64,000 bases of DNA, from the NCBI GenBank assembly GCA_046759445.1, contig JBHICG010000009.1, positions 10,927 through 74,926 on the forward strand, given 5' to 3'. The notes beneath the pieces are model-generated. The model did no database searches, was not told the origin of the DNA, and was given only the letters and a program-made list of their open reading frames with translations. Numbering within the stretch: the stretch's first letter is position 1; each line of letters opens with the position of its first letter. Source of the DNA: Candidatus Scalinduaceae bacterium. GTDB taxonomy: Bacteria; Planctomycetota; Brocadiia; Brocadiales; Scalinduaceae. Below are positions 12,172 to 40,929 of the stretch, piece after piece. The translations under genes were made by a program, and so were the position numbers.

Positions 12172-13638
12172 ATGACCCTAAAAATATACAACACATTAAC
12201 AAAACAAAAAGAGTTATTTACTCCGTTTGAGGCGGGGAGAGTCGGAATTTATGTGTGTGGTCCAACCGTTTATGACCACCCACACATCGGACATGCCAAG
12301 AGTTACGTTAGCTTCGATGTAGTGGTGCGATATCTGAGACATATAGGCTATAAGGTACGATATGTGCAGAATATTACAGATGTCGGACACTTAACGGACA
12401 ATGCTGATGAAGGAGAAGACAAGATTGAAAAAAGGGCTAAGCATGAGAAAGTAGAACCTATGGAATTAGTTGAAATGTACATGCGAAGCTATTATGAGGA
12501 CATGGATGCGTTGAACAATATACGACCCGATATTTCTCCTCGTGCGACAGGACATATTCCAGAGCAGATAGATTTGGTTAGGAAACTTATTGACAAAGGA
12601 TTTGCTTACGAGGCAAATCAATCTGTTTACTTTGATGTATCTAACTTTAAGAATTATGGAAAACTTTCCGGGCGAAGGCTGGATGAACAAGAATCCGGGG
12701 CACGGGTTGGGATAAATCCAGAAAAAAAACATCCAGCGGATTTTGCGCTTTGGAAAAAAGCAGAACCCGGACACATCATGAAATGGAACAGTCCATGGGG
12801 TGTTGGTTTTCCAGGCTGGCATCTCGAATGTTCGGTTATGTCGATGAAATATCTCGGTAAAACGTTTGATATTCATGGTGGTGGAATTGAAAACGTATTC
12901 CCTCATCATGAGTGTGAGGTTGCGCAAAGCGAGGCTGCTAATGAAGTGCCTTTTGCCCGCTATTGGATGCACAACAATATGGTAACCGTTGACGGGCAGA
13001 AGATGGGAAAATCATTAGGCAATTTCGTTACACTGAAGGACGCATTTAAACAATACTCATCTATAACAATACGTTTTTTTGTCCTAAACACCCATTACCG
13101 TAACCCCATTGATTATGGTGATGAGGCATTACGTGCAGCAGAAACAGGATTAGAACGATTACATAATACTCTGCGCAACTTAAGAGAAAGATTGAGTTCT
13201 TCCAAAGGAACTAAAATAAATAAGGTTTGGAAGGAAAAGCTAGAAAAATACAAACAAACTTTTGAAGAAGCCATGAATGAGGACTTCAATACTGCAGAAG
13301 CAATTGCAGTTCTTTTTAATTTGGCAAAAGAAGTAAACACTCTCCTGAACTCCGGAGACTTAATCTCCAAAGGTATTCTATCCGAAATAGATTCTTTTTA
13401 TCATATTTACGGAGGTAATGTTCTTGGAATTATTTCAGAGAATATCGTTCAGCGCAATTCACATGAAGGAGATGGTTTTAAAATGGAAGACAATCTAATA
13501 AAGTCATTGATCGATACAAGGGATGATTTGCGGGCATCTAAGCAATGGGAACTGGCTGATAAAATAAGAAATAGATTAAGTGAGTTGGGCATTATCCTTG
13601 AAGATAAAAAAGAAAAGGTTACCTGGCGGAAGAAATAG
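12172..13638 (+). CDS. cysS: Cysteine--tRNA ligase
   Basis: YVCGPTVY, HIGH, DFALWK, PGWHLECS, HGGG, KMGKS. Confidence 0.97.
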   Translation: MTLKIYNTLTKQKELFTPFEAGRVGIYVCGPTVYDHPHIGHAKSYVSFDVVVRYLRHIGYKVRYVQNITDVGHLTDNADEGEDKIEKRAKHEKVEPMELVEMYMRSYYEDMDALNNIRPDISPRATGHIPEQIDLVRKLIDKGFAYEANQSVYFDVSNFKNYGKLSGRRLDEQESGARVGINPEKKHPADFALWKKAEPGHIMKWNSPWGVGFPGWHLECSVMSMKYLGKTFDIHGGGIENVFPHHECEVAQSEAANEVPFARYWMHNNMVTVDGQKMGKSLGNFVTLKDAFKQYSSITIRFFVLNTHYRNPIDYGDEALRAAETGLERLHNTLRNLRERLSSSKGTKINKVWKEKLEKYKQTFEEAMNEDFNTAEAIAVLFNLAKEVNTLLNSGDLISKGILSEIDSFYHIYGGNVLGIISENIVQRNSHEGDGFKMEDNLIKSLIDTRDDLRASKQWELADKIRNRLSELGIILEDKKEKVTWRKK

Positions 13639-13669
13639 TTTATTCAATGACAGATGAAACGTTATAAAA

Positions 13670-13835
13670 CCTAAATTGAGCGATTTTATCGCTATATCCT
13701 CATGGAACATTGAAAATATATGTTCTTCTATAAATATTATCTTCACCTGTTAAGTGAAGGAATTCGTCATTCCCGCAGTCTGTTGAGCGGGAATCACGGG
13801 AATGACAACATAACTTTAGAATCGCTCAAATTAGG
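13670..13835. mobile_element. MITE-like element, family 2, with an internal GTCATTCCCG...CGGGAATGAC palindrome
   Basis: Ends CCTAAATTGAGCGATTTTA / TAGAATCGCTCAAATTAGG form an inverted repeat with 2 mismatches in 19; REP-like core at about 13766-13806. Confidence 0.6.
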
Positions 13836-13845
13836 TAAAAATAAA

Positions 13846-14256
13846 ATGAAAAAAGTTTTGAATCAAACCTTAACGTTTACGGTTATCATATCTTTACTCA
13901 TCTGTTCTCCAGGTTTTTTCACGTCCAAATCTATTGCCAGAGAAGCTTTCAAAAACATTTCTGTTTTAGAGGCAAATCAAATGATTAAGCTTCAAACAAT
14001 TCATATTCTTGATGTGAGAACAGATGTTGAATATGCGCAATCCCACATCAAGGATGCCGTACTTATCCCTCTTATGGTCTTATCCAGTAGGTTACATGAG
14101 CTTAAGGATGAACAAAATATCTTAGTATATTGTTATAGTGGTAATAGAAGCAAGACGGCTTGCGAATACCTTGCATCAAAAAGTTTTAAACACGTTTATA
14201 ATATGCTAGGTGGAATAAGTTCATGGATAGAAGCAGGCTACGAAGTTACAAAATAA
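13846..14256 (+). CDS. Exported rhodanese-like domain protein
   Basis: Signal peptide from MKKVLNQ (ATG 13846), ILDVRT, HIKDA, active-site YCYSGNRS, NMLGGISSW. The ORF-track 5' extension lies inside the MITE. Confidence 0.88.
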   Translation: MKKVLNQTLTFTVIISLLICSPGFFTSKSIAREAFKNISVLEANQMIKLQTIHILDVRTDVEYAQSHIKDAVLIPLMVLSSRLHELKDEQNILVYCYSGNRSKTACEYLASKSFKHVYNMLGGISSWIEAGYEVTK

Positions 14257-14308
14257 ATCTGACAGGTTAATGGTTTCGCAGCTACAAAATATTATATTGT
14301 CATGTTTA

Positions 14309-14689
14309 TTACGTATCTAACCCAAGAACGTCAACTATCTTTTCAACAATCTCATCAACATCAAAAGGTTTTGTCATATAAACGTCAACACCAACATCTC
14401 TCCCCTTCTGTTTATCAATTTCCTGCCCCATTGCCGTAAGCATTAAAACATAAATATCCTTAATTCCAAGCTTATTCTTTATAGCATCACATAATTCATA
14501 TCCATCCATTCCCGGCATCATTGCATCAAGAATGACCAGTTCAGGTTTTTCCTTTTTTATACACTCAAAAGCCTCTATTCCATCGCTCGCTATAAACAAT
14601 TTTACACCTTTTTCTTCAAGCTCCTCGAAGGTTTGTTCCAGCAACATTCTCATCCCAGGCTCATCGTCTGCTATCAATATCTTTGGCAT
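14309..14689 (-). CDS. Single-domain response regulator
   Basis: ILIADDE, phospho-Asp motif ILDAMMPGMDG, MLTA, YMTKPF; ATG 14689. Confidence 0.9.
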   Translation of the reverse strand: MPKILIADDEPGMRMLLEQTFEELEEKGVKLFIASDGIEAFECIKKEKPELVILDAMMPGMDGYELCDAIKNKLGIKDIYVLMLTAMGQEIDKQKGRDVGVDVYMTKPFDVDEIVEKIVDVLGLDT

Positions 14690-14985
14690 ATATTTTCCCT
14701 GCAAACGTTCGTAGCGACCTTATGGTCACCACGAATTATTAAAATGAATAAACAAATTGGACTCCCCGCAAAAGCGGGATTACTTCCTCCCTGTCTAACG
14801 TTCGCTTTATGTTATTCCTTCACTTTGTTCAGAACGGCGTCTGATCCCTTTACCTTATATCATCTAAGCTGAAGTCAGAGAATCTTTAATCAAGAAATAT
14901 TTCGAATTAGTTTTTTTAAACTTGACAGGTCACCTATTAATTCGTTTCACGCAGCCCTTTAGAGCCGAACTCCATACCCCCCCCC

Positions 14986-15025
14986 ATCGCCCTTTGACAA
15001 AAATAAATCATGACAAAAGGGCGAT
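14986..15025 (-). terminator. Hairpin just downstream of the 15045-15350 gene
   Basis: ATCGCCCTTTG...CAAAAGGGCGAT inverted repeat about 20 nt after the stop; no clear U-tract. Confidence 0.35.
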
Positions 15026-15044
15026 CGATGAGGCAAAAGCTCGA

Positions 15045-15350
15045 TTAAGCATCACAGTAATATTGAATGCCTTCCCACCAACAATCTTCATGATGAACCC
15101 ACCATGTACATAAACATAAATTAGATTTTTTTGTTTTATACAACTTAATTGTCATTGTTGGTTCATTTACATCAACACCTTCAGGTATTTCTTTATGCTG
15201 AAGTTTTTTTTCAACTTTATCAAAATTTAATGAATCTAAACTAGAAGTATCTTTATTAAGGATTTTAGGAGAAGAACCAGTAGCGTCAAACGAAAGAACT
15301 ATTTTGGGTCTCCGATTTGCATCTGTAACTCTTTCATCATCGTTTTTCAT
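15045..15350 (-). CDS. Small protein with a Cys/Trp/His-rich C-terminal tail
   Basis: 101 aa, AAGGA RBS; charged N-terminal region, then SNLCLCTWWVHHEDCWWEGIQYYCDA. Confidence 0.65.
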   Translation of the reverse strand: MKNDDERVTDANRRPKIVLSFDATGSSPKILNKDTSSLDSLNFDKVEKKLQHKEIPEGVDVNEPTMTIKLYKTKKSNLCLCTWWVHHEDCWWEGIQYYCDA

Positions 15351-15910
15351 TTTTTATTTCCTTTCTGATACGTAATCCATAAATGTATGTTTCAATAACT
15401 ACTTTGTTTGAAACCTCTAACGCTCTCATATTACATTCAATAAAACCACCCCCTCTTTCTTATATGACGGTTAAGGATTCTGCAAAATTAATCCAATAGC
15501 ATACTTTATAATTTTGCAGAAATCTTTTATAAAGGTCATTAAATGATTCTAAACAACCCTACCCGAACAAGTCGTACGTAGAATTCAGGCTAGGGTAATT
15601 CTCTGAATTACGTATAATTGCCTTAATTGCACGCTTTTCTACGTGCATCGTAGCAACGATACTTAAAGAGTCAAGGGTTGTTTTTGAAAAGGCAAAAATA
15701 CCTTGGCTGTTCCACTATTAGGTGTAACAGCCGCTTTGGTCTTTTATTTGTCAGGAATAATACCTAAAGGGTAAATTTCTAAATGTTGTGTTTAAAAAGT
15801 GGTTACGATCTGGTCGGTATTAACTCTTATAATGAACGCTATAAATAAGAAAATAGCGGTCTGTCATTTTTATCCCATCTTCCGCGAGGATATACTCCAT
15901 CACTTACATT

Positions 15911-16103
15911 ATCATTCCCGTGAAAACGGGAATCTAAAGCAGATTCCCGATCAAGTCCGGGTGTGATTCTGTCTGTCTTTCGGACAGTTTAGCAGAATCA
16001 CCTAAGTAATTCCGCTTTTGCGGAATTGCCAATGACATTACTTGTTTGGAAATCTATATCAGATTCCCACCTGCCTACCGACGTCAGGCTCTCACGGGAA
16101 TGA
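15911..16103. repeat. Composite REP-like palindrome cluster with nested insert
   Basis: TCATTCCCG...CGGGAATC, GATTCCCGATCAAGTCCGG[insert 15961-16030]AATGAC, GATTCCC...CGGGAATGAC. Confidence 0.7.
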
Positions 16104-16168
16104 CAATTTGGACACTTTAAATTCACTCATGTAACAAGTTAAGCTGCCTTTGGCAGCGACTTTCATAC

Positions 16169-16271
16169 TCCCCTCTAAAAAGATGATCTGTGGGGGGTGT
16201 ATAACCCTTCTTATGGAAGGGACGACATATCTATACACCCCTTAATCCCCTCTTTCTAGAGGGGAAACTAT
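16169..16271. repeat. CCCCTCT...AGAGGGG palindromic repeat, copy 1
   Basis: Near-identical to 27721-27804 (CATATCTA[T/C]ACACCCCTTAATCCCCTCTTT..AGAGGGGAAACTAT); related hairpins near 19830, 23960, 33560 and 33800. Confidence 0.7.
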
Positions 16272-16293
16272 GATTAAATTCCTAAACATTAAA

Positions 16294-19200
16294 TTAGTAA
16301 GAGAATGTAAACCTGGCAAAAATCAACTGATCAGGAGATATCACCGGATTTGTGGGATCCGTATCCTGAAACTTGAACTCTTCGTCGAACAAGTTTTTAG
16401 CTCCGATGCTGATGATGCCCCACCTTTTAGGTAAGCGGTAACTAATAGATCCATCGAATACCCAAAATTGATCGTCTCCCGGTACAACAAACGTACCTCC
16501 TGTAACGGGATCTCCAAATTTACCATCCTGATCAATATAGGTTGCCTTAAGCCGCGCGCTAAATCCCGAGGGGTGGAAAAAATTTATCCCCAGGGGCACA
16601 CGGTTCGTTTTGATCTTGTGAAATGACTCTGGACCGAGGAGCCCTCTCGCCCTTTCAAGCCACTCATATTGATATTCTGCACTAAGAGACAGCCAGCGAT
16701 GAGGTGTCCAGTAAAGGTAAGCGCGTATCAGTTCTTCTTCTGAACCTAATCTACTGAACACAGTCGTTGTGGGGCTTGTTCGTATAAACGGTATTTCCAT
16801 GTCCCGCCTGGAGTATTCCGCACCGCCATACAATGATTTTGAGAACTTCTGATCTACGGCAACACCGTAACGCCATGCCTCTGTACCATTAGGATCGTCA
16901 AAAAACTGGTTAAAACCAGCCACCTGTGTGGGCTCAATGGTTTGATCCGACAGAAGCTGCCTTTTCAGGGTTCTAAATGCAGCGGCGCGGAGCGTAGTAC
17001 CGGGAAGAAGGTCCCAGGTCAGCCCGAATTTCGGATTACCCTGGACATATTCCCTGACGATACCTTCGAAAAAATCTACACTTCCTCCTATCGTCCAGGT
17101 AAAATTTTCCAGAAAATTAATCAATGAGTACACATAGAAGTTAGTATGTCGAATATCAAAATCTCCTTGTGTTATTCTCGGTGGTTGCGGTGGTGGAAAT
17201 GTGATAATACTGGTATTATTTCGTTCCGAGCTGTTACGCCCTATACCTCCGGTAACGTGAAATCGTCCCGATTGAGACCGATACAGATGCCGGATTTCAC
17301 CCGTCCAGCCATCGTTTTCTAAATCGCTCTCAAAGCCGGGTGACATTCCTAAAGGTGAGGGAGAAGGACCTCTCAAAATATTTTTTGTGTCAGAATCTAG
17401 ATTAAAATAGATGAAAGAGGCTATGAAATCTGAATTGGGCGTAAAGGAGTGATGAAGACCCAACCTTAGGTTATCTACTTCGGATTCTTGCCTTTGGTCA
17501 GGCCTAAAATTATTCGGGTCGAACCTCAGTTCTAGATCTCCTTTCTCGGTATCCGTAAATCGATATTCTGCCTGCACGCTTGTCTTGTGCGATAGACTTG
17601 CCTGGAAGAATGCATTGTAAATATCCGTGTTCAGCCCATTATTTCTTCGGAATCCACCGGTCTCGTAATGGAACTGACCCAGGCTATAAGACATCCTTCC
17701 CAGCACGCCTGATTGAACGAGATCATTACCCACAGTATCTCTCTCGGCTATAACACCGTTGGCTTGCAGCGCCAATCGATTTCTATTAAAGAGCGGGTTA
17801 TATTCGTTAAAGGAAGGATCTTGCGGACCAGACCCCTCCAGTATGAAGAGATTGCTCTCAGCGAGTTGGGGCTGAATCGGTGTGATGTTAATGGGCTGCA
17901 ACAGTTGAGACTGTAAGAGTTCACTAACCCTGGCAATCTCGTGGCGCGGTAGAGCCGAATATGTATCCGCCAGGAATCTGTGAGCAGAATAATTGCTTGG
18001 ATCAACATTAAGTGATTTCCAACCCTCTATCAGGGCTCGCTGTTGAAAACCCAGGTCTTTATAAATTCTGCCAATACTGGCGCTTCGTGAAGCCAGGTCT
18101 TCATCCAGCAAAAGCCGTGACCTGTAAATTACCCGATTTTCATTTAACTCAATGGATTTCTGCATGTCATGCAATGCCTCTACCGGGCGGTTCACGGTCT
18201 GTTTCCGAATCGCATCATAGAACCAGGGTGTTGGATCTTGCGGGTCAAGTTCCCTGGCAATGTCTAATTGACCTGACGCCTTTTTATCACGTTTTTCTTC
18301 GAAATAAGCCTTGCCAAGATAACTGCGGATAAGCGAGTTATTGGGGTCAAGAATTGCAGCTATCTCAATTTCACCACGACCCTCTTTCAGGTTACCTTCT
18401 CTAATCTTTGCTAATCCGAGGCCCAAACGTGGGAGAGAATCTGCCTGATCCAGTTCGATAGCCTTTTCAAAGGCATTCTTAGAATCACGAATCTTTATTT
18501 GAGTAAGATAAGCAAATCCCAAAACGGTTTGTGTGCGTGCCAGATTAGGATTCAGTGTTACAGCCTCCTGTGCCGCGTCACCTGCCTTATTGAGATATCC
18601 TTTGGATAGCCATAGTTCGCCTAATCTTGCCCACGCCAGGGCATTTGCTGCATCTCGCTTTACGGCTTCCTGCAGACTCTCTAGCGCCCCATCAATGTCA
18701 TAATTGGCTTGCTGAGCATAGGAGAACGCAATTCGTGCAGTTGCTGAACGGGGATCTGTCTCAATAGCTTTTTGAGCAAGACTGAGAGCCCTGTCTTTAT
18801 CATTTTGTGCCACAGCGATGATTGACTGAAGCGCAATGGCATGACTGTTGCCAGGTACTAAATTCAGCACCCGCTCGACGTCTAAACGTGCTTCATCAAC
18901 ACGGCCTACAGTGAGAAGCAACGAAGCACGATAGTTGAAAAAACGTGGGTCACTGATTTTCTCAGTTATTTTTTCAATACTGGAAAAAGCATCTTTTAAA
19001 TCTCCCTTCCAATAAGACTGGATGGAATCTAGAACCATTGCCTGCCACTTCGTTTTACCAATATCCGGAAAATCTATAGTGCGATAATATATAACAGGCG
19101 GATAATAAAGCGCCCATTGGACTGCATCCCTGGGGCGCACTAAAATATACGGTACAGGCGCCTGCCCTGCCCTGGCTATTGCAGAGTGACCACTTTTAAG

Positions 19201-19740
19201 TGTAAGGCTACCCGCTTTATTCGTAGCTAACACTTGCCCTTCAAATACCGTAAGAGACGTTCTATCTACCCCAACATTAACCAGGAATTCAGTACCTTCC
19301 ACAGTCCCGTCAACAAATGGTGTTGTTACCTTTAATGTCCATGGCATGCGGCTTAGGAAGTGTACACCCCCTGCGAGTATATCAAGCAAAGAGAGTTTTT
19401 TCTTTTCCCTACCAGAAAAGGTTATTGTAGTATTCTCATTGAGACGAATGAGTGTATCAGTGCTAATGAGGATGGCTGCACGGCTTCGTTCCTGCACCCT
19501 GATCATGTCGCCAATGTTGTATGTATCATTTAATTTAATAGGTTTCCACTGCATTTCATCTTTTTTTTTGGCCTGTACGTTGCCTTGCACAGAAACAACT
19601 TTGGCCATCCATTCCTTACGTGTTTCTGCATCGGCTGAATCTGTAAAAAGCAACCCTACCGGTATGCTCAAATATATTAGCAGGCTCAACTGACAGATTT
19701 GTATTTGTTTAATCACTTTTACTCCTTTGTATATCGTCAT
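16294..19740 (-). CDS. FecR-TPR-TonB-dependent beta-barrel outer-membrane receptor (NsrA-like)
   Basis: Signal peptide; FecR domain (VVSVQGNV...TPFVDGTVEGTEF...VFEGQV); DAVQWALYYP linker; multiple TPRs; barrel ending FARFTFSY. Confidence 0.85.
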   Translation of the reverse strand: MTIYKGVKVIKQIQICQLSLLIYLSIPVGLLFTDSADAETRKEWMAKVVSVQGNVQAKKKDEMQWKPIKLNDTYNIGDMIRVQERSRAAILISTDTLIRLNENTTITFSGREKKKLSLLDILAGGVHFLSRMPWTLKVTTPFVDGTVEGTEFLVNVGVDRTSLTVFEGQVLATNKAGSLTLKSGHSAIARAGQAPVPYILVRPRDAVQWALYYPPVIYYRTIDFPDIGKTKWQAMVLDSIQSYWKGDLKDAFSSIEKITEKISDPRFFNYRASLLLTVGRVDEARLDVERVLNLVPGNSHAIALQSIIAVAQNDKDRALSLAQKAIETDPRSATARIAFSYAQQANYDIDGALESLQEAVKRDAANALAWARLGELWLSKGYLNKAGDAAQEAVTLNPNLARTQTVLGFAYLTQIKIRDSKNAFEKAIELDQADSLPRLGLGLAKIREGNLKEGRGEIEIAAILDPNNSLIRSYLGKAYFEEKRDKKASGQLDIARELDPQDPTPWFYDAIRKQTVNRPVEALHDMQKSIELNENRVIYRSRLLLDEDLASRSASIGRIYKDLGFQQRALIEGWKSLNVDPSNYSAHRFLADTYSALPRHEIARVSELLQSQLLQPINITPIQPQLAESNLFILEGSGPQDPSFNEYNPLFNRNRLALQANGVIAERDTVGNDLVQSGVLGRMSYSLGQFHYETGGFRRNNGLNTDIYNAFFQASLSHKTSVQAEYRFTDTEKGDLELRFDPNNFRPDQRQESEVDNLRLGLHHSFTPNSDFIASFIYFNLDSDTKNILRGPSPSPLGMSPGFESDLENDGWTGEIRHLYRSQSGRFHVTGGIGRNSSERNNTSIITFPPPQPPRITQGDFDIRHTNFYVYSLINFLENFTWTIGGSVDFFEGIVREYVQGNPKFGLTWDLLPGTTLRAAAFRTLKRQLLSDQTIEPTQVAGFNQFFDDPNGTEAWRYGVAVDQKFSKSLYGGAEYSRRDMEIPFIRTSPTTTVFSRLGSEEELIRAYLYWTPHRWLSLSAEYQYEWLERARGLLGPESFHKIKTNRVPLGINFFHPSGFSARLKATYIDQDGKFGDPVTGGTFVVPGDDQFWVFDGSISYRLPKRWGIISIGAKNLFDEEFKFQDTDPTNPVISPDQLIFARFTFSY

Positions 19741-20037
19741 TGCTCTCCCCTCCTATCTTTTATAATTCATCTTAGTGACAGGACAAAGGTAAATAAGGAC
19801 GTCAAGTTAAGCCTTCGGCAACAACTTTCAACTTCCCCTCTAAAAAGAGGGGAAGTATCATTGCTCCACGCTCTTTATTCCTCCCAGAGTTGTGGGTAAC
19901 GATAAGCCCTGGGGGAGGTTAGTGTAAGTAGAAACTGTATTTTACTGATTTATAAGTAATCAAAATAGAAATCCCTATACAATCGAGTTGCCAAGCCAGC
20001 AAAAGTCTTAAATAATATTCAATAACAAAGCGCAAAT

Positions 20038-22266
20038 CTAAAATGCACTATAATTTTTGTCTATGCAAACTACTCCGTCCCACGATTCCTCAAATGACTT
20101 ATTCCTGTATTGCTTGCATAATTTTACATAAAAGAGTGAAGGACTATCTTCTCCGAATCTTTTGATAATTTCATAAAATTTCTCTGATGCCTCTTCCCAT
20201 GATTGCCTCTTGAATGCATCGAGTGCATAAGAAAATAATTCACAAAGACTTTTTTGCATATGATTGGAATCTTCCTTACGACACATTAATTCATGTACAG
20301 CAATTGGTTTTGCTCTGTCAATCAACAGGAATTTTCCAAGCTCTCTTGTCAGGAAGCAATCAATATGATTCAGCATCTCTTCTGATAACAATATCCGTAC
20401 ACCTAAGTGTTTATTCAACTTATCTATCGTTTTGGCTGTATCGATTATGTCTTCTACAGAGCAGTATTCATAATGATCTTCAGCTCCTATATTATTGAGC
20501 AATATTCGTCCATAATGCATGCCAATACGGGTTGGTATCCAACTCTCACTGGAAGATTGATTATACCTATGAAGCGCTTTATCAATATCAAGCGCTGATA
20601 GGTAGGCCTCTTTCCTTGGATCAGCATCAGAGGTCATCCATATTGCTGTTATAGGGTTCTCTTTCACGTTAGTTATGGTACCACCATGTTGCTTTACTGG
20701 TGCACAAACAACTTTATAGCATTTTTTGATTAAGCTCTTGAGTTTATTTGAATCTATAGTTTCAAATAGCGAGCTATATAAACAAGTTCCATAAACTTTT
20801 TGATTAATATCATTTGGTAGCTGATCTACAATAACATCAGGTAAGTAGTATCCGAGTCTCTTTCTTTTATTCTGTCGCTCATTTTTCTTATTATTATACC
20901 TGCATATTATACCACCTAAAAAAGCCATTGGCGCTTGACAAAATAAAGGGACAGAAAGAGGGTATAAAATACCATTAGCCGTAAATTGATAAAGTGTTAT
21001 GGTTAAATATATCACACTTACCCCTATGACACTTACTGCCGTGATAACAGTAGAAAATAGATAACAAAAAATGCCAATTATCACTCCCCACAGAAAAATA
21101 ATACCGAGATATGCATAAAAACGTAATGGCTGAATATGTGTATTTTCGTATAGATTGGCGAATGCTGTTGCAGCAATTTCAACTCCGCTCATAGGAAATT
21201 CTTTTGATGGTGAAAAGACTATCTTAAAGCCGTCTCGTTGTTCTGGATACAAATGTTCTGAAGAACCAACAAACACGGCCTTGCCGTTAAAGTCTATATG
21301 TTTTTTGTTGACAACCAATTGTTCCGGTAAATTCAATACATTATAATAAGGAACAGTCGTAATAGTGTGTGGGGGTCCATAAAAATTTAAATATTGACTT
21401 TTGGGACTTTGGTACATCCGTATCAGTGATTTAAGGATATGGCTCTTTTTTACATCAATAGATAACATCTTTGAATTATGTAACTCTTCTAGCATTTTTT
21501 CTGCAATCTGAGGGTCGTGTTCAAAGATATCTCTTATAATTTGAATGACCTTTATAACACCTTTGGTATTAATTATTTCGTCTTTGTCTTCCGGTAGTCT
21601 ATTAATTAAGGACGGAGTAAACTTTTTTAATAATTTAATAAAATCATCATAATCATTTAATGTGAAGATTTGGAATACAACTATCGGCAGAGACGGTATA
21701 TTTCCTGCAGATATCTTAAACGTCCAATACTGACTTACTTTTAAAGGTACTTTGGGTATAGGAAAAGGGGCCAGGGCAATTGAGGATTGCTTAAGAGTAG
21801 GAATTGGTTGCACTACTCTTTCAATATCAATATTCCCTATATTAGAACCATCCTCATCAGTCAAAAAAGCCTTCTCCTTCTTGATTTTTTCACAAAGGAC
21901 AACGTTGCCTGCCTTGCTAATCGCTCTTGCAAATAAATTATCATCCTCTGTAGAACGAGTTTCATTAAACATAACGTCGAATGCAATTACTACAGCGCCA
22001 GCCCTGACTAAATTATCGGTTAGACGAGCGTGGTAAGAGCGAGGCCATTTCTTAAGGTCGTAGGGTAGGCTTAATTTGTCGGCAGAAAACTTATCCATGT
22101 TGACAATAATGACATCATGCGGAGGTTGTCTCTGTCCCCTCAGCTTAAAAAACATATCTATGTCCACATTTTCATCGAAAATAAGCCGGAAAAGAATGAG
22201 ACTAACCACCAAACCCGTTATGCCTGTAAGTAGGCCAAGAAATACCGCTTTCCATATATTGACCAC
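20038..22266 (-). CDS. CHASE2 + TM + degenerate class III nucleotide cyclase + C-terminal TPR-like tail
   Basis: CHASE2 motifs (WPRSYHARL, IAFDVMF, SGVEIAATAFANL), 3 TM segments, TRIGMHYG, SWDGV tail; catalytic residues altered. Confidence 0.85.
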   Translation of the reverse strand: MVNIWKAVFLGLLTGITGLVVSLILFRLIFDENVDIDMFFKLRGQRQPPHDVIIVNMDKFSADKLSLPYDLKKWPRSYHARLTDNLVRAGAVVIAFDVMFNETRSTEDDNLFARAISKAGNVVLCEKIKKEKAFLTDEDGSNIGNIDIERVVQPIPTLKQSSIALAPFPIPKVPLKVSQYWTFKISAGNIPSLPIVVFQIFTLNDYDDFIKLLKKFTPSLINRLPEDKDEIINTKGVIKVIQIIRDIFEHDPQIAEKMLEELHNSKMLSIDVKKSHILKSLIRMYQSPKSQYLNFYGPPHTITTVPYYNVLNLPEQLVVNKKHIDFNGKAVFVGSSEHLYPEQRDGFKIVFSPSKEFPMSGVEIAATAFANLYENTHIQPLRFYAYLGIIFLWGVIIGIFCYLFSTVITAVSVIGVSVIYLTITLYQFTANGILYPLSVPLFCQAPMAFLGGIICRYNNKKNERQNKRKRLGYYLPDVIVDQLPNDINQKVYGTCLYSSLFETIDSNKLKSLIKKCYKVVCAPVKQHGGTITNVKENPITAIWMTSDADPRKEAYLSALDIDKALHRYNQSSSESWIPTRIGMHYGRILLNNIGAEDHYEYCSVEDIIDTAKTIDKLNKHLGVRILLSEEMLNHIDCFLTRELGKFLLIDRAKPIAVHELMCRKEDSNHMQKSLCELFSYALDAFKRQSWEEASEKFYEIIKRFGEDSPSLFYVKLCKQYRNKSFEESWDGVVCIDKNYSAF

Positions 22267-22295
22267 TGCTCAAGCTCCTTTTACAAACAATAAAA

Positions 22296-23948
22296 TTACG
22301 AAACCAATGTGATTCCATTACTACAGGGTAGAGTAAACGTGAAGTTACTTCCTTTACCCATCTCACTTTCTATCCATATCCTGCCGCCATGATGTTCTAC
22401 AATCTGTTTGCAGATAGGAAGCCCCAGACCTGTCCCTCTTGATTTCTTTGTAAGTGTTCCATTCACCTGCTTGAATTTCTCAAATACCCTAACCATATCA
22501 CCCTCAGCAATGCCTATCCCTGTATCTATTACACTTACCATTATCTCATTATTTTTCTTCCTCACTCTACAGGTTATGGAACCCTTTTCTGTGAACTTAA
22601 CTGCATTGGAAACCAGATTAATCACAACCTGTATAAGCCGATCCATGTCACCAACGACAGCAGGTAACCCCTCTTCAACATCTCTTATTAACTCGAGGTT
22701 GTTCTGCTCAAAGAAACTATTCGTAAACTTCGTTGCTCTTTCAATCACCTCAACTATAGAAATGGCCTTCATATTCCATTCAATCTTTCCTGACTCAATC
22801 TTTGATATGTCAAGGAGATCGTTTATAAGATCTGCTAGCCTCTTACCCTCCAGGACTATTGTGTTAACGTTCTCATTTATCTGCTTTATTACTCTATGAG
22901 CCTTTTTGTCTTCAACCTTGACATAAGGGAATATAACATCTTCAAGTTTCTTGCTTATAATCCTTGCGAATCCTAATACTAGTGTTAGGGGAGTCCTCAG
23001 TTCATGGGATACTACGGATAAAAATTCCGTTTTAACGTTATCCAGTTCTTGTAGTTTTTTGTTTGCCTCTCTTAATTTAATAGTTCTGTCCTCAACTTTT
23101 TCTTCCAATGACAGGCTGTAATCCTCTAATTTTTTACTGGATATTCTCATATTTTTGGACATTTCTATAAAAGCATTGGCAAGTACGCCAATTTCATCTT
23201 CTGAATTAATTTTGACACTTTCTGTAACAGTAAAATCCCCTTTAGCCAATTTCCGAACCGATTCGGTTAAGTTAATAAGAGGTTTAGATAACTTGGTTGA
23301 TATCATAAAGACAATTATAATACCTAAAATAATAAATATACCAGAAGTAAGGATTGACTGTATAATGATATTCTTGGTTTGATTAAAAATAGTCAACTTG
23401 AAGTTTGCAATTTCCTTATTAAGCGAATCCAATGAAAAACCAAGTCTAAGCACTCCCCATGGCTCTTCATTGATTTTGATTGGCACAATAAATTCCATTA
23501 TTGACACGTCATTTTTCTTATATTCATTAATGATTGATTTACTCTGGTTTACAGCGAACCAATCTTCGGAATTGGACAGTATTTTATTCTGAAGCTCTGG
23601 CTTTAATGTATGGATATATGCCTTGGGTGTGAAGTCTGTTACTATGACATAATCCAGATCTTTGTCCTCTTCAACTGACTTCTTTATTATTTCTGTAACA
23701 TTAGAAAGATTGAAAGTTGCAAAAGCGATTTCTGTCTGCCTGGCCAGATAATCGGAAAGTATTTTTCCTCGCTTAACCAGGTTTTCTCGCATTAGAGCAA
23801 TGCGATTCTCAAATTCTCCTTCTAAAGTCATTTTATGGGTTAATGTCTGAATGATGGTCAATGTAATAAGCAAACCAACAATCAAACCGATCATGGTAGA
23901 AAGGAGTTTTCGACGAATACCTTTTTTTATGAAAATTTGTTCATTCAT
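22296..23948 (-). CDS. Membrane sensor histidine kinase (periplasmic domain, HAMP, HisKA, HATPase)
   Basis: 2 TM segments, [42 protein letters not shown]. Confidence 0.95.
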
Positions 23949-23977
23949 AAGGACTTAATCCCCCCATATCCCCCTTA

Positions 23978-24139
23978 AGAGGGTGTGTCATAATGTCATT
24001 TTGACCCCGCATCCTTGCTTCCGCAAGGAAGCAGCGGGGGAAAAATTTCTAATCGGTAACATATTTATTTATTTTATTAGATTCTGCACTTGGTTTAGAA
24101 TGACAAAATGCCCATTTACAGGATTATGACACAGCCTCT
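23978..24139. mobile_element. MITE-like element, family 3
   Basis: 17-bp terminal inverted repeats AGAGG[G/C]TGTGTCATAAT with one mismatch, TA on both flanks, internal GTCATT...AATGAC core. Confidence 0.7.
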
Positions 24140-24154
24140 TAGAAGAGAGGATTC

Positions 24155-26251
24155 TCAAAATTCATAACGCAACTCTACCATAAACGACCTTCCCGGCTGG
24201 GGGAAATCGGTAGGCACCGTATTTCTGGGAGCAGGGTCTTCATATCCCTTGTCAAAGAGATTACGTACTGAACCCCTTATCTCAAAGTTGTCCATAAAGT
24301 TTTTACCGATAATGGTAAGATCAACCACTGCGTATGAAGGCATATCTCTCCTGGGATCTCCAAACTCCCTTGGCCTTGGCCCACTGAGGAACGTATGCAG
24401 GTTGGCATTCGCATACTTCCAGAATCCTACGTTCACGCCAAAATTCGCCTTGTGTACGGGCACGTCAGGCAATCGATTTCTATTCCTTGTCTCTTCCGCT
24501 TTCTGAAAGGTATAATTGGCATAAGCGTAATTATCATTCCCAAAATCGGCCTTTATTTCTGCCTCAACACCCATAACCCTTGCTCCTCCTGAATTTTGAA
24601 ATTGCCTGGGGCTTCCCGTATCTAACTGAATCCTATCCCTTATACGGTTAAAAAAGTAATTCATGTTCCCCCTGACGCTTTTAGTAAAATTATAGCCCAG
24701 GCCAATCTCGTATGTATTTATCTTTTCCGGGTCAAGCCCAGGATTACCTATAAAAGCAGGATTATTTATAAAAAACAATTCGTTAAAACTAGGCGCCCTG
24801 AAGGCGGTTGCAAAAAGGAGCTTCAGGTATGCGTCCTCCATAAACCGCCATATCAATCCTATCCTTGGATTGGTTGTGCCCCCAAACCGCTTAAACTGGT
24901 CATGCCTCACTCCAATCGTTAAATCAATATCCTTTGTAATGTTCCACTCATCCTGCAGATAGAGAGCCCATATCTGCCTTGTAGCCCTCCTGGCAAAAGG
25001 AAGGCTACTGGAAAAGTCCCTGAATGAGGGAAGGGGAGCAAACGTCATAGGATCAACAAAGAAAAGGGGATGAAAATTAGCTCCGAATTTAACGTCACCC
25101 TGGTGAATCCATTCGTATTGAAAGCCAAATGTCAAGTCATTTCCCTCAAACAACTTATAATTAAATTGATTTTCAAAACCGACAGTCCGATATTTAATCC
25201 TCGTCAACCCCTTTAGGCCATCAGGAAAGAGAACTGGAAATGGAAACGCAGCCGTTTCCACAAAACCTTCTGGGCGCGTCTCAATAAGGGCATCACTGTT
25301 ATATTGGTCATAATACACCTTTGTTGTCATATTCAGCTTTTCTCCCAGAGGTAGTCTATAAATAAGTTCACCAAATATATATGTATCTTCCCATAACGTA
25401 TCATCACTAAGGGCATTAATGAAACCTATATAACCTTCACGCCTTCTCTTCATATATTTGGACTTGAGTTCCAGGTTTTTGTATGATAGCTTCAGATTCA
25501 GGTCTGTCTTTTCCTTTCTATTTTGAGACCTCCCGGGGCTCATAGAAAAAGGAGCGGGGAAAAGAATATCCTGCTCAATCTTTTTGCTGAAACCCTCTGT
25601 GTCAAGGTAATCAAAAAAACCTGATATCTTTAGATCACCATATTCCTTTCCGAATAACATATTATAATTCTGTGTATCAAAGCTTCCACCACTTGTCGTC
25701 CACTGAAAGCCATCAATATCTTCCGTATCCTTTGTTATGATATTAATAACGGCAAGAAACGCATTCTGCCCGTACAGGGCTGAACCGGGTCCCCTGATAA
25801 TCTCTATCCTTTTTGCATTCTCAACTACAAGATCAAAAAAATTCCATACAGCCCCGCCCGACCCCGGTTCATTAACGGAATGCCCATCTATTAGTATCTT
25901 TACCTTTTGTGTAGATTCTTCTAAGACACCCCTAACAATAATCCTTCTCGCCCCGTCGTTGTCCATTTGGATATCAAAACCGGGTACTATTCTCAAAACA
26001 TCCGTTAATGTCCTGAAACCCATTTGTTTTATCTGTTTGGCCGTAATTACGGTAACGATGCCAGGCGCCCTGCTAATCGGTATCTCACGTTTTGTAGTAA
26101 TAGCCACAAAAGATTCCGCCTGTAACCATCTTATCTCTTCCTGAATCTCTTTTATTTTCTCCGCCGTCTTTGAGACTTCTTCAGAGAAGGCTGGAGTCAC
26201 ATTGAAAACAAAGGTAACAAATAAGAATAAAACGATTATCTTGTTTCTCAT
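24155..26251 (-). CDS. TonB-dependent receptor, paralogue 1
   Basis: ATG 26251 with signal peptide; plug motifs APGIVTVITA, LRIVPG, RIEIIRGPGSALYG; LDPEKI; C-terminal ELRYEF. Confidence 0.93.
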   Translation of the reverse strand: MRNKIIVLFLFVTFVFNVTPAFSEEVSKTAEKIKEIQEEIRWLQAESFVAITTKREIPISRAPGIVTVITAKQIKQMGFRTLTDVLRIVPGFDIQMDNDGARRIIVRGVLEESTQKVKILIDGHSVNEPGSGGAVWNFFDLVVENAKRIEIIRGPGSALYGQNAFLAVINIITKDTEDIDGFQWTTSGGSFDTQNYNMLFGKEYGDLKISGFFDYLDTEGFSKKIEQDILFPAPFSMSPGRSQNRKEKTDLNLKLSYKNLELKSKYMKRRREGYIGFINALSDDTLWEDTYIFGELIYRLPLGEKLNMTTKVYYDQYNSDALIETRPEGFVETAAFPFPVLFPDGLKGLTRIKYRTVGFENQFNYKLFEGNDLTFGFQYEWIHQGDVKFGANFHPLFFVDPMTFAPLPSFRDFSSSLPFARRATRQIWALYLQDEWNITKDIDLTIGVRHDQFKRFGGTTNPRIGLIWRFMEDAYLKLLFATAFRAPSFNELFFINNPAFIGNPGLDPEKINTYEIGLGYNFTKSVRGNMNYFFNRIRDRIQLDTGSPRQFQNSGGARVMGVEAEIKADFGNDNYAYANYTFQKAEETRNRNRLPDVPVHKANFGVNVGFWKYANANLHTFLSGPRPREFGDPRRDMPSYAVVDLTIIGKNFMDNFEIRGSVRNLFDKGYEDPAPRNTVPTDFPQPGRSFMVELRYEF

Positions 26252-26429
26252 AATTTTGTATTTCTTCAAATAGAAAGGTGTGCAATTCGGGCAATTCACA
26301 GAATTGCACCAAATTGCCTTAGCCTAAATTCCTCTGCTGGATTTAAGTACGGTTTTGTCATGGTAAGCTTTATAAAATCAGCCTCGATTAAATTATTATA
26401 CACTTGCCATTGAATGATAATTAACTGCA

Positions 26430-26939
26430 TCATGTGTGTTGAATACTAATCCGCTTTCTCAATGTTCTATTTTCATATTTCCGCCCAAAATTACTGAGAT
26501 CATTTTGGTGCCGCATTACGTTTGATAAAACTAATTGTTCTTGTTCTTCAGGAAGAACATTTATAGTCACCAAGGACTTAAAGATTTCATTGATTTCAGA
26601 AAACTCTATCTGGTGTGCCAACTCATAAGCGTCATCTAAATTTTTTATTGAACCTGCTAAATTTGTATTCATTAGATTCTGAATTTTTACAATGTTTTTC
26701 CACATTTGTTTATCAATATGTGACAAAAGCTGTTCCCGTGTCATAGAGTCGTAGATATCTTGCAATGTTTTCATATGAAGTATTTCGTCCTTAGCCAATT
26801 TGTCCCAAAGGGTTGAAATCTCTGGAAAATGGGAAAATAGCATTGATAATTTAGCATATAATTCACCAGCTTTGCATTCAATTTCAATTGACCGCTCAAT
26901 AATATCAGCTACCATGTGCTCATAATGTGATTCATTCAT
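26430..26939 (-). CDS. Ferritin-like / rubrerythrin-fold protein
   Basis: IEIECKAGELY, DEILH (ExxH), second helix pair HQIEF...RH. Confidence 0.7.
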   Translation of the reverse strand: MNESHYEHMVADIIERSIEIECKAGELYAKLSMLFSHFPEISTLWDKLAKDEILHMKTLQDIYDSMTREQLLSHIDKQMWKNIVKIQNLMNTNLAGSIKNLDDAYELAHQIEFSEINEIFKSLVTINVLPEEQEQLVLSNVMRHQNDLSNFGRKYENRTLRKRISIQHT

Positions 26940-27039
26940 TTGTCATTTCTCTCACCTTATGACGTAAAAGACTAAATTCCGCTGCTGGATTTAAATAGAT
27001 AATATTATATTTAATTGGTTTATACTTATCCATCAGTCC

Positions 27040-27720: not shown

Positions 27721-27804
27721 CTCCCCCCTAAAAAGAGGGGCTGGGGTGTGTATAAAGGCATATCTACACACCCCTTAATCCCCTCTTTTTAGAGGGGAAA
27801 CTAT
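27721..27804. repeat. CCCCTCT...AGAGGGG palindromic repeat, copy 2
   Basis: Matches 16169-16271; overlaps the 3' end of the 27764-29992 gene. Confidence 0.7.
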
Positions 27805-29997: not shown

Positions 29998-31650
29998 TTA
30001 AAGCTCCTCACCATTCCTAATACTGCAGGGTAGAGTGAATGAAAATACGCTCCCTCCACGCAACTCACTTTCCACCCATATCTTTCCGCCATGATGTTCA
30101 ACAATCTGTTTGCAGATTGGTAGCCCAAGTCCTGTCCCTTTTTGTTTGCCTGTATGCCTTGCACCCACCTGCCTGAATTTCTCAAATACCTTTTCCTGAT
30201 CAACCTTATTTATACCTGCGCCTGTATCTATTATGCTTATAATTATCTTACCATCATACTTTTTTGCCCTGCATGTTACAGAGCCTTCTGCTGTGAAATT
30301 CACTGCATTGGAAATAAGGTTAATCACCACCTGTATAAGCCTGTTCCTATCCCCCATAACCACAGGAAGTCCAATCTCTATGTCCCTTATTAGCTTCAGT
30401 CCTTTTTCTTCGAATAAGCAAGCAGTAGCAGCAACTGCCCTTTCTATAACCTCAGCCATTGAAAGTAGGTCCATCTCCCACACAATCTTTCCAGCTTCCA
30501 TCTTAGATATGTCAAGGAGATCATTTATGAGGCTTGTAAGTCTCTTGCCTTCTAACATAATGATGTTAACGTTCTCTTTCACCTGATTTATTGCCTTTTG
30601 AACCTTGGTATCATCAACCATGGCATTAGGGAATACAACATCTTCGAGTCTTTTACTTATAATCCTTGCAAATCCTAATACTAATGCAAGGGGTGTTCTC
30701 AGTTCGTGGGATACAATAGATAAGAAATCGGTTTTTACCTTGTCCTGTTCTTGAAGTTTTTTATTTGCATTTCTTAATTCAATGGTTCTATCTTCCACTT
30801 TTTGTTTCAGTGTTCGGCTGTAATCCTCTAATTCCCCGTAAGACCTTTTTAGATTCCTTGACATTTCAATAAATGTATCGGCAAGGATACCAATCTCATC
30901 TCCTGATTTAATCTTTATGTTATCTACAATATGAAAATTATCCTTAGACAGTTCCCTGGCTATTTCAGTCAAGCTGACAATAGGTTTGGATAGCCTGTTT
31001 GAAATCACATAGACTATTACAGCACTCATAAAAACGAATATAATTGAAGCAATGGTAGACCTGACAATAATGCTTCTGATCTTATTCAAGATTTCTTTCT
31101 TTGAATTAGTAATTTCATAATTAAGCAAATCTAATGAAAAACCCAGCCTGAGTACTCCCCATTGATTAGCGCTGACATATATTGGCACAATAAACTCCAT
31201 ATAGGATTTTCCATCCTTCTCATATTCATTAATAACTGCTTTCTTCTGGCTAACTGCAAATATATCTTCTTTATGTGAAAGCAGTTCCTGTTCAAGTTCA
31301 GGTCTTTGTGTATGGATGTATGCTATGCCAGAGAAGTCCATCAATATTGCATAATCTAAATCCTCTTCATCACTTACAGATTTTTTTATTATTTCCGTAA
31401 CATTAGAGTAATTGAACGATGCAACGCCATTTTCAGTCTGGCGGGCAAGGTTATCGGAAATGGTCTTCCCACGCTCAATAAGCTTTTCTCTCATCAGATA
31501 TATACGTCGTTCCAGTTCTTCTTCTAAAACCCCTTTTTGAGTAAATACATGAATGGGCGTAAATATCACAAGCATGACAATAACCAGACCTATCATGACA
31601 GAAAGGAGTTTCCAGCGAATACCTCTTTTTACGATTAAGTTTTCTTTCAT
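29998..31650 (-). CDS. Membrane sensor histidine kinase (paralogue of 22296-23948)
   Basis: Same length (550 aa) and layout; [32 protein letters not shown]. Confidence 0.95.
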   Translation of the reverse strand: MKENLIVKRGIRWKLLSVMIGLVIVMLVIFTPIHVFTQKGVLEEELERRIYLMREKLIERGKTISDNLARQTENGVASFNYSNVTEIIKKSVSDEEDLDYAILMDFSGIAYIHTQRPELEQELLSHKEDIFAVSQKKAVINEYEKDGKSYMEFIVPIYVSANQWGVLRLGFSLDLLNYEITNSKKEILNKIRSIIVRSTIASIIFVFMSAVIVYVISNRLSKPIVSLTEIARELSKDNFHIVDNIKIKSGDEIGILADTFIEMSRNLKRSYGELEDYSRTLKQKVEDRTIELRNANKKLQEQDKVKTDFLSIVSHELRTPLALVLGFARIISKRLEDVVFPNAMVDDTKVQKAINQVKENVNIIMLEGKRLTSLINDLLDISKMEAGKIVWEMDLLSMAEVIERAVAATACLFEEKGLKLIRDIEIGLPVVMGDRNRLIQVVINLISNAVNFTAEGSVTCRAKKYDGKIIISIIDTGAGINKVDQEKVFEKFRQVGARHTGKQKGTGLGLPICKQIVEHHGGKIWVESELRGGSVFSFTLPCSIRNGEEL

Positions 31651-38793: not shown

Positions 38794-38870
38794 AATGTTT
38801 ACCTCCTTTAATTGTTTGTATAAGGTTCTGACAGTGCTCAATAGGTATTATGTGTGTTTTTCTTCAAAAA

Positions 38871-40541: not shown

Positions 40542-40929
40542 GATTGTGCCTTTACGTTTTCCTTACATGTTCAGGAATTAAAATCAATTGTACGTTCTTT
40601 CTTATCGCAAAATACATATATAAGATTCAAAAGCTTCTCGTTCTCACGTTGAGCGCCTGTCTGACCAAGTCTTTTGGACAGAAAACCTTAACTCCGTTTA
40701 CAGGAATTTACCATTAGGAGTTATCCCTTTACCCTGTGGAGTAATCCAGCCACTAACAGGGTGAAGGGTTTTAATTAATTAAGGCATTGTGAGATCTTCC
40801 CGATACACATAGAAAGGCTAAGGCAATTGCCTGAATTGCACCGAATTGCCTTAAGCTAAGTTTCGCTTCTGACTCGTCTGGTTTGGGGTTAATCCCATTA
40901 TAGAATTATCTTGAAGAGGTATTATAAAA

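Follow-up and report, generated by a model that had tools for sequence, protein, structure and literature searches.

The CHASE2 sensor domain is found widely among bacteria, mostly with unknown ligands, and to our knowledge the NsrA/CyaK pair of Sinorhizobium meliloti is its only genetically dissected trans-envelope example. In the available parts of the two reports on that pair, NsrA is an outer-membrane beta-barrel receptor that is needed together with CyaK (PMC7529298, PMC13001267), and its barrel is placed at residues 600 to 1200 (PMC7529298). The pSymB record shows nsrA (1200 residues, with FecR and TPR domains) directly preceding cyaK (649 residues, with CHASE2 and a Guanylate_cyc match of 73 bits). 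A prior sequence-only reading of the locus studied here had stated that NsrA works with the adjacent CHASE2 cyclase CyaK, which agrees with the record and both reports. Here we analyze a 64,000-nucleotide stretch of contig JBHICG010000009.1 (hereafter the window) from a Candidatus Scalinduaceae bacterium (assembly GCA_046759445.1). It encodes a CHASE2 receptor of 742 residues, in which the class III cyclase homology domain (CHD) is degenerate, and, beside it, a 1148-residue NsrA-like outer-membrane protein. A hydrazine-synthase alpha domain is encoded in the genome, indicating that the host is an anammox bacterium. Judged by its sequence, the 742-residue protein appears to be a real pseudo-cyclase receptor that has been retained by selection.

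Catalytic residues and predicted fold of the CHASE2 receptor

The 742-residue protein has the architecture of the CHASE2 family. Its CHASE2 domain (PF05226, E = 9e-30, residues 24 to 398) and transmembrane (TM) helices show no damage. It keeps the residues that are invariant in the family, and an AlphaFold2 (AF2) model places helices at residues 2 to 28, 383 to 403, 406 to 431, and 438 to 471, giving one N-terminal TM helix, an extracytoplasmic CHASE2 domain, and three further TM helices. The N terminus aligns in register with the N termini of homologues. A search of the genome identifies it as the sole CHASE2 protein, and NCBIfam contains no family for it at E <= 0.1. The partner combines FecR, TPR, and a C-terminal barrel in one exported protein, as expected of an NsrA-like receptor, and in a BLASTP comparison its alignment with NsrA of S. 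meliloti runs from end to end (residues 47 to 500 and 313 to 1129, 21 to 23% identity, E = 2e-16 and 3e-16).

Guanylate_cyc (PF00211) matches residues 557 to 629 of the receptor at 14.3 bits, below the gathering score of 21.9, and an own-genome search with PF00211 at E <= 0.001 does not find this domain. The catalytic positions were located by alignment with CyaK of S. meliloti, OaPAC, a REC-cyclase from the same genome, and intact family members, and all alignments agree. The first metal-binding Asp is gone: six residues, STDAEQ in the family consensus, have been deleted between L496 and Y497. The GD motif position is occupied by E536-N537, replacing the second metal-binding Asp with N537, and the substrate-binding Lys position and the second substrate position are N533 and C602, respectively. 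The GDxVNxxxR motif reads E605...D609...T613, so that D609 stands in place of the transition-state Asn and T613 in place of the Arg. The mapped spacing equals that of Rv1625c, in which, in the part of the source available, the metal-binding residues are D256 and D300 and the remaining catalytic residues K296, D365, N372, and R376 (PMC4174876): the Lys lies 4 residues before the Asp, the substrate residue 7 before the Asn, and the Arg 4 after it. The protein thus falls short of a class III cyclase in its PF00211 score, both metal-binding Asp residues, the Asn/Arg pair, and the substrate pair. Because these residues are lost, the receptor is predicted to be unable to make cyclic AMP (cAMP) or cyclic GMP.

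These results uphold much of the sequence-only reading, which had described two open reading frames (ORFs) with an intact CHASE2 domain and intact TM segments, a cyclase domain without catalytic residues that should be checked against PF00211, and a short deletion at the first Asp together with three degenerate strings. The strings lie at residues 495 to 502 (CLYSSLFE), 534 to 543 (VKENPITAIW), and 604 to 614 (VEDIIDTAKTI), and the mapping against all four references supports their assignment.

A cyclase that is still active through non-canonical residues would be extremely improbable. The intact family is non-canonical at both substrate positions and so tolerates unusual active sites. In the window protein, however, the first metal-binding Asp has been deleted along with its loop, the second is Asn, and the transition-state Asn and Arg have become Asp and Thr. 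Further, the eight members of the clade described below share no common set of replacements, although one would be expected of a newly evolved site.

An AF2 model built from a 76-row family alignment, dominated by intact relatives, has a mean predicted local distance difference test (pLDDT) score of 80.5. In it, residues 490 to 663 follow the strand and helix order of the cyclase homology domain and are succeeded by helices at residues 669 to 720, and the C-terminal extension reaches a pLDDT of 81 to 96 per 10-residue block (residues 661 to 730). The top Foldseek matches in the PDB are all class III cyclases with a probability of 1.00 (OaPAC, bPAC, CyaB, CyaC, Cya2, Rv1625c, and Rv1900c). The match to OaPAC (4yus) has an E value of 2.6e-9, and target TM-scores (TMt), about 0.7 for single-domain chains, are 0.72 for CyaB (3r5g; root mean square deviation, 3.9) and 0.73 for CyaC (1wc5; root mean square deviation, 2.9). 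Similarly, phmmer matches the pseudo-cyclase domain to OaPAC at an E value of 4.2e-5. In this model the pseudo-cyclase domain appears to retain the class III cyclase fold. When only clade members were aligned (28 rows; mean column identity, 80%), AF2 gave a model of low confidence throughout (mean pLDDT, 51.6; predicted TM-score, 0.31), including in the bona fide CHASE2 domain, and this model is therefore silent on folding of the pseudo-domain.

The degenerate clade, selection on its cyclase domain, and the partner gene

An exhaustive search returned 17716 proteins at E <= 0.001, and with residues 1 to 470 as the query, 961 of 7999 scored candidates have E <= 1e-60. In a 136-sequence alignment, comprising proteins of at least 640 residues, the protein of locus L081, and two references, the catalytic Asp, Asp, Asn, and Arg are kept in 121 sequences. 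The remaining 15 consist of the window protein and its nearest relatives (8), P0077 (1), and sequences that differ at the Asn position only (6). Among representatives of 50%-identity clusters, 137 of the 143 scored keep all four residues (7 of 150 were left out for length), and the other six have at most two changes each. The five orthologues that were read in genomes of the same order (loci L032 to L035 and L037; 47 to 53% identity) are all intact.

Two further features of the family emerged from these alignments. P0077 (665 residues) has the same CHASE2 N terminus (57% identical over residues 1 to 470) fused to HD-GYP domains in place of the cyclase, an output-domain swap. In the intact family of about 750-residue proteins, the Lys position is Asp in 98, Asn in 21, and Lys in only 3 of the 143 representatives, and the second substrate position is Arg in 109 of 143, whereas CyaK has Lys and Ser. 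With substrate positions this far from canonical, it is uncertain which nucleotide the intact proteins produce.

Trees were built from CHASE2 and TM columns only, which keeps the cyclase domain from influencing the grouping. In these trees the window protein falls in one degenerate clade of eight, with P0002, P0004, P0024, P0040, P0041, P0051, and L081, and the sister groups are intact. Support for the clade is 100 by the Shimodaira-Hasegawa-like approximate likelihood ratio test (SH-aLRT) with 76 rows, and 100/100 by ultrafast bootstrap and SH-aLRT in a careful search with 38 rows. Its members are about 0.55 changes per site apart in CHASE2 and TM columns and 59 to 64% identical. Their frames span 735 to 758 residues, and the two largest 90%-identity clusters, of 25 and 10 sequences, are mostly full length (729 to 744 residues). 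The lesions differ from member to member in all eight proteins, with the letter at the first Asp column depending on gap placement. We conclude from the tree that catalysis was lost once, at the base of this Scalindua-type clade.

The clade relatives are metagenomic, and those with names are labelled Candidatus Scalindua sp.; three clade loci (L080, L081, and L082) come from a metagenome scan. A profile scan of genome contigs with the clade alignment found no clade member, the best match being 35% identical and from a Chromatiaceae metagenome-assembled genome (MAG). Several clade proteins (the P0024 cluster, P0412, and P0413) are publicly named "adenylate cyclase" despite their absent catalytic residues, and this name is probably wrong for clade members.

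To describe selection on the domain, we calculated ratios of nonsynonymous to synonymous substitution rates (dN/dS) by the Nei-Gojobori method for the window protein and L081 (dS of about 0.75; 2000 bootstraps). The ratio is 0.455 in the CHD (bootstrap range, 0.30 to 0.70; 0 of 2000 reach 1), 0.352 in CHASE2, and 0.257 in the C-terminal extension. In a neutral simulation of the CHD over half the window-L081 distance, stops numbered 6.4 on average, and only 0.1% of 2000 runs kept an open frame.

Compared with its intact relatives, the domain has nonetheless changed its pace. In the three intact pairs of similar overall divergence (60 to 68% identity), the CHD is the best-conserved domain, with 71 to 75% identity and a dN/dS of 0.07 to 0.12, against 0.17 to 0.22 in CHASE2. 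With the topology held fixed, CHD tree length divided by CHASE2-plus-TM tree length is 1.53 in the degenerate clade versus 0.61, 0.71, and 0.72 in three intact sister groups, so that the CHD evolves about 2.1 to 2.5 times faster relative to CHASE2 in the clade. The CHD/CHASE2 identity ratio has a median of 0.81 in 21 clade pairs and 1.01 in 5603 intact pairs, of which 7% have a ratio as low as the highest clade ratio. No such acceleration is seen in the C-terminal extension (tree-length ratio, 1.04 in the clade versus 0.83, 1.06, and 1.35 in the intact sister groups), which is 0.569 identical within the clade and 0.486 among intact pairs. In our reading, constraint on the CHD relaxed about twofold when catalysis was lost, and the domain is still under purifying selection.

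The sequence-only reading had proposed a retained pseudo-domain rather than simple decay, and the monophyletic clade, a CHD dN/dS below 1 in 2000 of 2000 bootstraps, and the simulation all favor it. That reading had also named what would count against it, namely, intact orthologues combined with neutral evolution of this copy. The orthologues in related genomes are indeed intact, but this copy is not evolving neutrally.

The partner gene is inherited together with the receptor gene. It is 59 to 64% identical to its orthologues in six related genomes and lies directly 3' of the CHASE2 gene in all five orthologous loci of the same order. Pair or remnants occur in the same genomes with both protein queries and in no other of the 92 searched, the exceptions being G028 (a partial CHASE2 gene at a contig end) and G041 (a CHASE2 remnant only). 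The two genes are also adjacent in a Chromatiaceae locus (L045). Across 17 diverse CHASE2-cyclase loci, a FecR-domain neighbor was found in 4 (immediate neighbors only, 51 of 115 ORFs). Among the best 120 of 6844 relatives, the periplasmic part of the partner is 63 to 77% identical, above CHASE2 in the same pairs, and in clade members it is 67 to 77% identical. The partner proteins P0141, P0143, and P0194 come from contigs equal in length to those of clade members P0004, P0051, and P0002, which points to co-location and suggests that the partner is retained in the dead-cyclase clade. A complex prediction for CHASE2 residues 29 to 380 with the partner FecR region (residues 40 to 235) scored 0.00 against a mark of 0.32, which speaks neither for nor against binding.

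The two genes differ in base composition, with a GC content of 45.3% (41.8% at third codon positions) in the partner gene, 35.8% (31.1%) in the CHASE2 gene, and 37.1% in the window. We considered this difference as a sign of separate origin and rejected it. The partner is GC-richer in all orthologous loci, by 4 to 5 points, so the gap is largely a property of the gene family. The larger gap in the window could reflect faster AT drift of the dead-cyclase gene or stronger constraint on the partner.

Possible roles of the pair and its genomic surroundings

We propose that the pair would form an envelope-spanning sensor module made up of the outer-membrane FecR-TPR-barrel protein and the inner-membrane CHASE2 receptor. 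The periplasmic half (partner, CHASE2, and TM bundle) may still work as in active relatives, and the cyclase domain, after loss of catalysis, would have been kept as a folded, non-enzymatic domain. Together with the C-terminal helical extension, it could provide a dimerization and protein-docking output or serve as the cytoplasmic anchor of a module with an envelope role. We assign a probability of about 0.6 to this reading, in which the dead domain and the C-terminal helices act non-enzymatically in dimerization or docking, or the module keeps a role in the envelope. The pseudo-cyclase may act as a scaffold. Since the catalytic residues are lost and yet the domain is intact across the clade, the sensor probably works without making cAMP. 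Further, the input half and the C-terminal extension are under selection after the enzymatic output was lost, which argues for a cAMP-independent function.

It is quite unlikely, as we see it, that the dead domain is a receptor or docking module by which the CHASE2 protein signals without a second messenger, outside-in or inside-out. In the outside-in route, a dimeric pseudo-domain and the C-terminal helical extension would recruit a cytoplasmic protein. In the inside-out, LapD-like route, a cytoplasmic ligand or protein on the pseudo-domain would set the state of CHASE2 and thereby that of the FecR-TPR-barrel protein. If true, no earlier bacterial class III pseudo-cyclase receptor would have had a defined non-enzymatic function. 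Among the PMC papers covered by our full-text search, none described a bacterial class III pseudo-cyclase or an inactive CHASE2 cyclase.

Slow decay is possible but unlikely. The domain would then be a relic after catalytic loss, with its frame open for want of time or through selection on CHASE2 and the TM helices alone. A number of observations weigh against a retained function, and several of them are arguments for decay. With both protein queries, the pair was not found in either same-genus genome (G088, 93% complete; G089, 97% complete). Broken copies occur in four other genomes: in G019 (L036) the CHASE2 gene lies in three frames beside a near-intact partner, in G069 (L035) the partner is frameshifted near residues 640 to 655 beside an intact CHASE2 gene, G041 (L043) holds a 97-residue CHASE2 remnant, and in G050 (L044) remnants of the two genes lie scattered. 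As the assemblies are drafts, frameshifts in them could be mistakes. That the module is dispensable, with a patchy distribution, is the main argument for slow decay. The acceleration of the CHD relative to CHASE2 and the member-specific lesions point in the same direction, as does a dN/dS of 1.28 in the N-terminal half of the CHD in the close pair L080/L081 (81 codons, few changes). The whole-gene dN/dS of 0.35 is high, and the window-L081 estimates come from one divergent pair, within which CHD and CHASE2 do not differ significantly (bootstrap P = 0.82). Variable columns within the clusters are mixed (CHD, 19 of 165, versus CHASE2, 24 of 348, in one cluster; 9 of 163 versus 23 of 348 in the other). 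In the AF2 model, the pLDDT is below 50 at residues 591 to 605. Finally, the pair has no conserved cytoplasmic neighbor: REC-only genes are found in L080 and L082, a histidine kinase (HK) in the window, and unrelated genes elsewhere.

Set against decay are the CHD dN/dS and the near absence of open frames in the neutral simulation, as well as the 735- to 758-residue frames that all eight lineages keep although they are about 0.55 changes per site apart. No stop is seen inside the CHD, where one would spare CHASE2 and the TM helices. Conservation of the C-terminal extension, which follows the CHD, is no lower than in intact relatives, and the periplasmic part of the partner remains well conserved in clade members.

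A regulatory heterodimer, or a dominant-negative one as the sequence-only reading had suggested, in which the dead domain pairs with another cyclase and silences or tethers it on an envelope signal, is in our view distinctly unlikely. In the available part of the source, class III cyclases are head-to-tail dimers that build their sites from both subunits, and inactive dimers keep the wreath-like arrangement (PMC4174876). There is a single possible target, as the genome encodes one bona fide class III cyclase, the soluble REC-cyclase (391 residues, on another contig), which is its only PF00211 match over the cut-off. The genome also encodes five cyclic nucleoside monophosphate (cNMP)-binding domains in four reading frames, so cNMP signaling exists. 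However, the pseudo-cyclase and the REC-cyclase are only 20% identical (over the whole alignment row), their genes are unlinked, and a subunit that lacks both the Asp set and the Asn/Arg set would inactivate both sites of the heterodimer, a blunt effect.

The neighboring genes bear on a further proposal of the sequence-only reading, that output is rerouted to neighboring kinases. Here the dead domain would dock the HK encoded upstream or a stand-alone receiver protein. The HK gene (22296 to 23948) is on the same strand, with its stop 29 nucleotides from the CHASE2 start, and a 764-nucleotide RNA-library contig (21739 to 22502) spans the junction without showing a single transcript. In L080 (303 to 668) and L082 (1607 to 1972), the dead-cyclase gene is preceded on the same strand by a gene for a 121-residue REC-only response regulator, and the window has a REC-only gene at 14309 to 14704. 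On the other side, the upstream HK shares 60% identity with another HK of the window (29998 to 31650), and its TonB-dependent receptor is 80% identical to that at 33827 to 35914, a duplication that assigns the HK to a separate tandem module within a 25-kb signaling island reaching to about 47 kb. The neighbor also differs between loci (HK in the window, REC in L080 and L082, which are 97% identical and count as one observation), and neither an HK nor a REC gene lies beside the pair in the five orthologous loci, where the flanking genes are unrelated. Rerouting to two-component proteins is thus very unlikely, and the earlier proposal is not supported. Only the two-gene unit is conserved, not its neighbors. 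The coordinates of its parts are collected in Table 1.

Table 1. The CHASE2 receptor gene, its NsrA-like partner gene, and adjoining sequence in the window
Feature	Position (nt)	Strand	Basis
CHASE2 receptor gene with degenerate class III cyclase homology domain, 742 aa	20038..22266	-	ORF; GTG start; stop 20038-20040
Periplasmic CHASE2 sensor domain, aa 29-380, after TM helix aa 2-28	21127..22182	-	Pfam, AF2 model
Three-helix TM bundle and juxtamembrane helix, aa 381-471	20854..21126	-	AF2 helices 383-403, 406-431, 438-471
Pseudo-cyclase domain (CHD), aa 489-663, predicted class III cyclase fold	20278..20802	-	Foldseek, phmmer, residue mapping
Conserved C-terminal extension, aa 664-742, with three helices (669-720) followed by the SWDGV motif	20041..20277	-	AF2, identity, tree lengths
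Intergenic gap of the pair, 297 nt: partial dispersed repeat and AGGAGG-like ribosome-binding site before ATG	19741..20037	.	Sequence
NsrA-like outer-membrane protein gene, 1148 aa	16294..19740	-	ORF, Pfam, BLASTP to NsrA
Partner: FecR domain, aa 79-170, after a signal-peptide-like N terminus	19231..19506	-	Pfam
Partner: TPR region, about aa 245-540, many TPR families	18121..19008	-	Pfam
Partner: plug-less TonB-receptor-type beta-barrel (TonB_dep_Rec_b-barrel, PF00593), aa 711-1117	16390..17610	-	Pfam
Dispersed intergenic repeat just 3' of partner stop, outside the system and marking its boundary	16120..16290	-	22 own-genome matches

The signaling island (22296 to 46474, minus strand) contains, besides the two HK genes, TonB-dependent receptors (24155 to 26299 and 33827 to 35914) and an sCache-HAMP-PAS protein without a kinase domain (27764 to 29992), encoded directly before an HK. 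Two periplasmic binding proteins (31660 to 33515), a further HK (36126 to 38108), a Tll0287-like protein (38113 to 38841), two dCache-PAS proteins (38871 to 43026), and a sigma-54 activator (44981 to 46474) complete it.

In three of five orthologous loci (L032, L034, and L036), phage-type integrase genes lie beside the pair, and L032 and L036 also have a SprT/DUF2786/DUF7168 gene. Together with the patchy distribution, these integrase neighbors hint that the pair travels as a cassette.

A dispersed repeat of about 105 to 170 nucleotides carries a TTCCCCTCT...AGAGGGGA hairpin and is matched 22 times in the genome, across at least 12 contigs. The copy after the partner gene is full, and that in the gap between the two genes, which is unusually long in the window, is partial (19803 to 19853). 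A pattern search for the repeat in the gap gave 2 matches against 0 expected, with an own-genome match at C9:30729-30774. Sequencing depth spikes at the dispersed repeat in all three runs compared. An Rfam scan of positions 13500 to 27000 found no family at its gathering score, and a promoter and terminator scan of 14000 to 26800 stayed at shuffle level (32 versus 35.4 and 10 versus 9.4), with no operon structure readable.

Contigs from two DNase-treated metatranscriptome runs of another study cover both genes at a likeness of at least 95%, which is consistent with transcription of both. As RNA-library contigs, in which DNA carry-over is possible and uncovered parts are uninformative, they give no strand, level, transcript ends, or single transcript. 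In DNA run X1, which may be from the source sample, one contig joins position 14850 to 23994 with 7 other letters between, skipping 9143 nucleotides that hold both genes and the HK. The shorter side of this junction has only 32 letters, so the join may be an artifact or a repeat; if real, it would represent a population variant without the module.

Comparison with described systems

GGDEF/EAL and kinase domains include well-known pseudo-enzymes. LapD, FimX, and PelD are membrane receptors with degenerate GGDEF/EAL domains, in which a dead nucleotide-cyclase-type domain is kept as a binding or relay module, and the window protein may work in a similar way. Their fold is unrelated to that of the window domain, for which nucleotide binding is doubtful given the deleted loop of the first Asp.

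The closest genetically dissected system is NsrA/CyaK, an envelope sensor of which the pair is a distant homologue. In both, adjacent genes encode a FecR-TPR-barrel protein of about 1150 to 1200 residues and an inner-membrane CHASE2 protein of cyclase type, and the window CHASE2 protein aligns with CyaK through CHASE2, TM, and CHD. The "same two-gene layout" proposed earlier therefore holds for adjacency, domains, and homology but not for gene order, which is reversed in the window (CHASE2 gene first). Further, identity is only 21 to 23%, and the window genes are separated by a 297-nucleotide gap, whereas those of S. meliloti overlap. CyaK has FCD, KYIGD, and GDAVNLASR, where the window protein has a deletion, NVKEN, and EDIIDTAKT (73 versus 14.3 bits). 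NsrA has no Pfam barrel match at 1e-3, whereas the window partner matches PF00593. As in the rhizobial system, the receptor gene adjoins the CHASE2 gene, and in the genomes related to the window the two are inherited together. Signal-dependent cAMP output has no counterpart here, as the catalytic residues are absent and the genome's cNMP-binding proteins are unlinked to the pair. In the available text of the two reports, only rhizobia are known to have the plant uL2 signal and the output through Clr (PMC7529298, PMC13001267).

The Burkholderia "BiofilmReg" operon encodes a LysM-FecR protein and a CHASE2 histidine kinase (PMC5192318) and, like the window, places a periplasmic FecR-domain protein beside a CHASE2 sensor. 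Its output is a kinase, and its FecR protein, as far as the available part of the source describes it, carries LysM and neither TPR nor a barrel. The combination of FecR and CHASE2 with a kinase shows that the two form a reusable input module with exchangeable outputs.

Inactive class III dimers offer a parallel for the cytoplasmic half. In the portions of the sources available, the mammalian C2 homodimer and the soluble guanylate cyclase (sGC) beta homodimer still form a wreath-like dimer (PMC4174876, PMC3591389), and like the window domain they have a cyclase fold with an incomplete catalytic set. C2 and sGC beta, however, are halves of an active heterodimer, whereas the window domain has lost both residue sets and has no complementary subunit encoded nearby.

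Among the systems closest to the pair are the intact proteins of about 750 residues from Brocadiaceae-type genomes, Desulfobacterota, and other MAGs (L032 to L035, L037, and L045), which share 47 to 53% full-length identity with the window protein. They have the same domain order, the same C-terminal extension, and a FecR-TPR-barrel gene directly downstream. Unlike the window protein, they keep TDAEQYT, GD, and GDIVNTAxR and pass PF00211. The dead clade and its intact sisters, at similar divergence, constitute a comparison set for the surfaces that matter.

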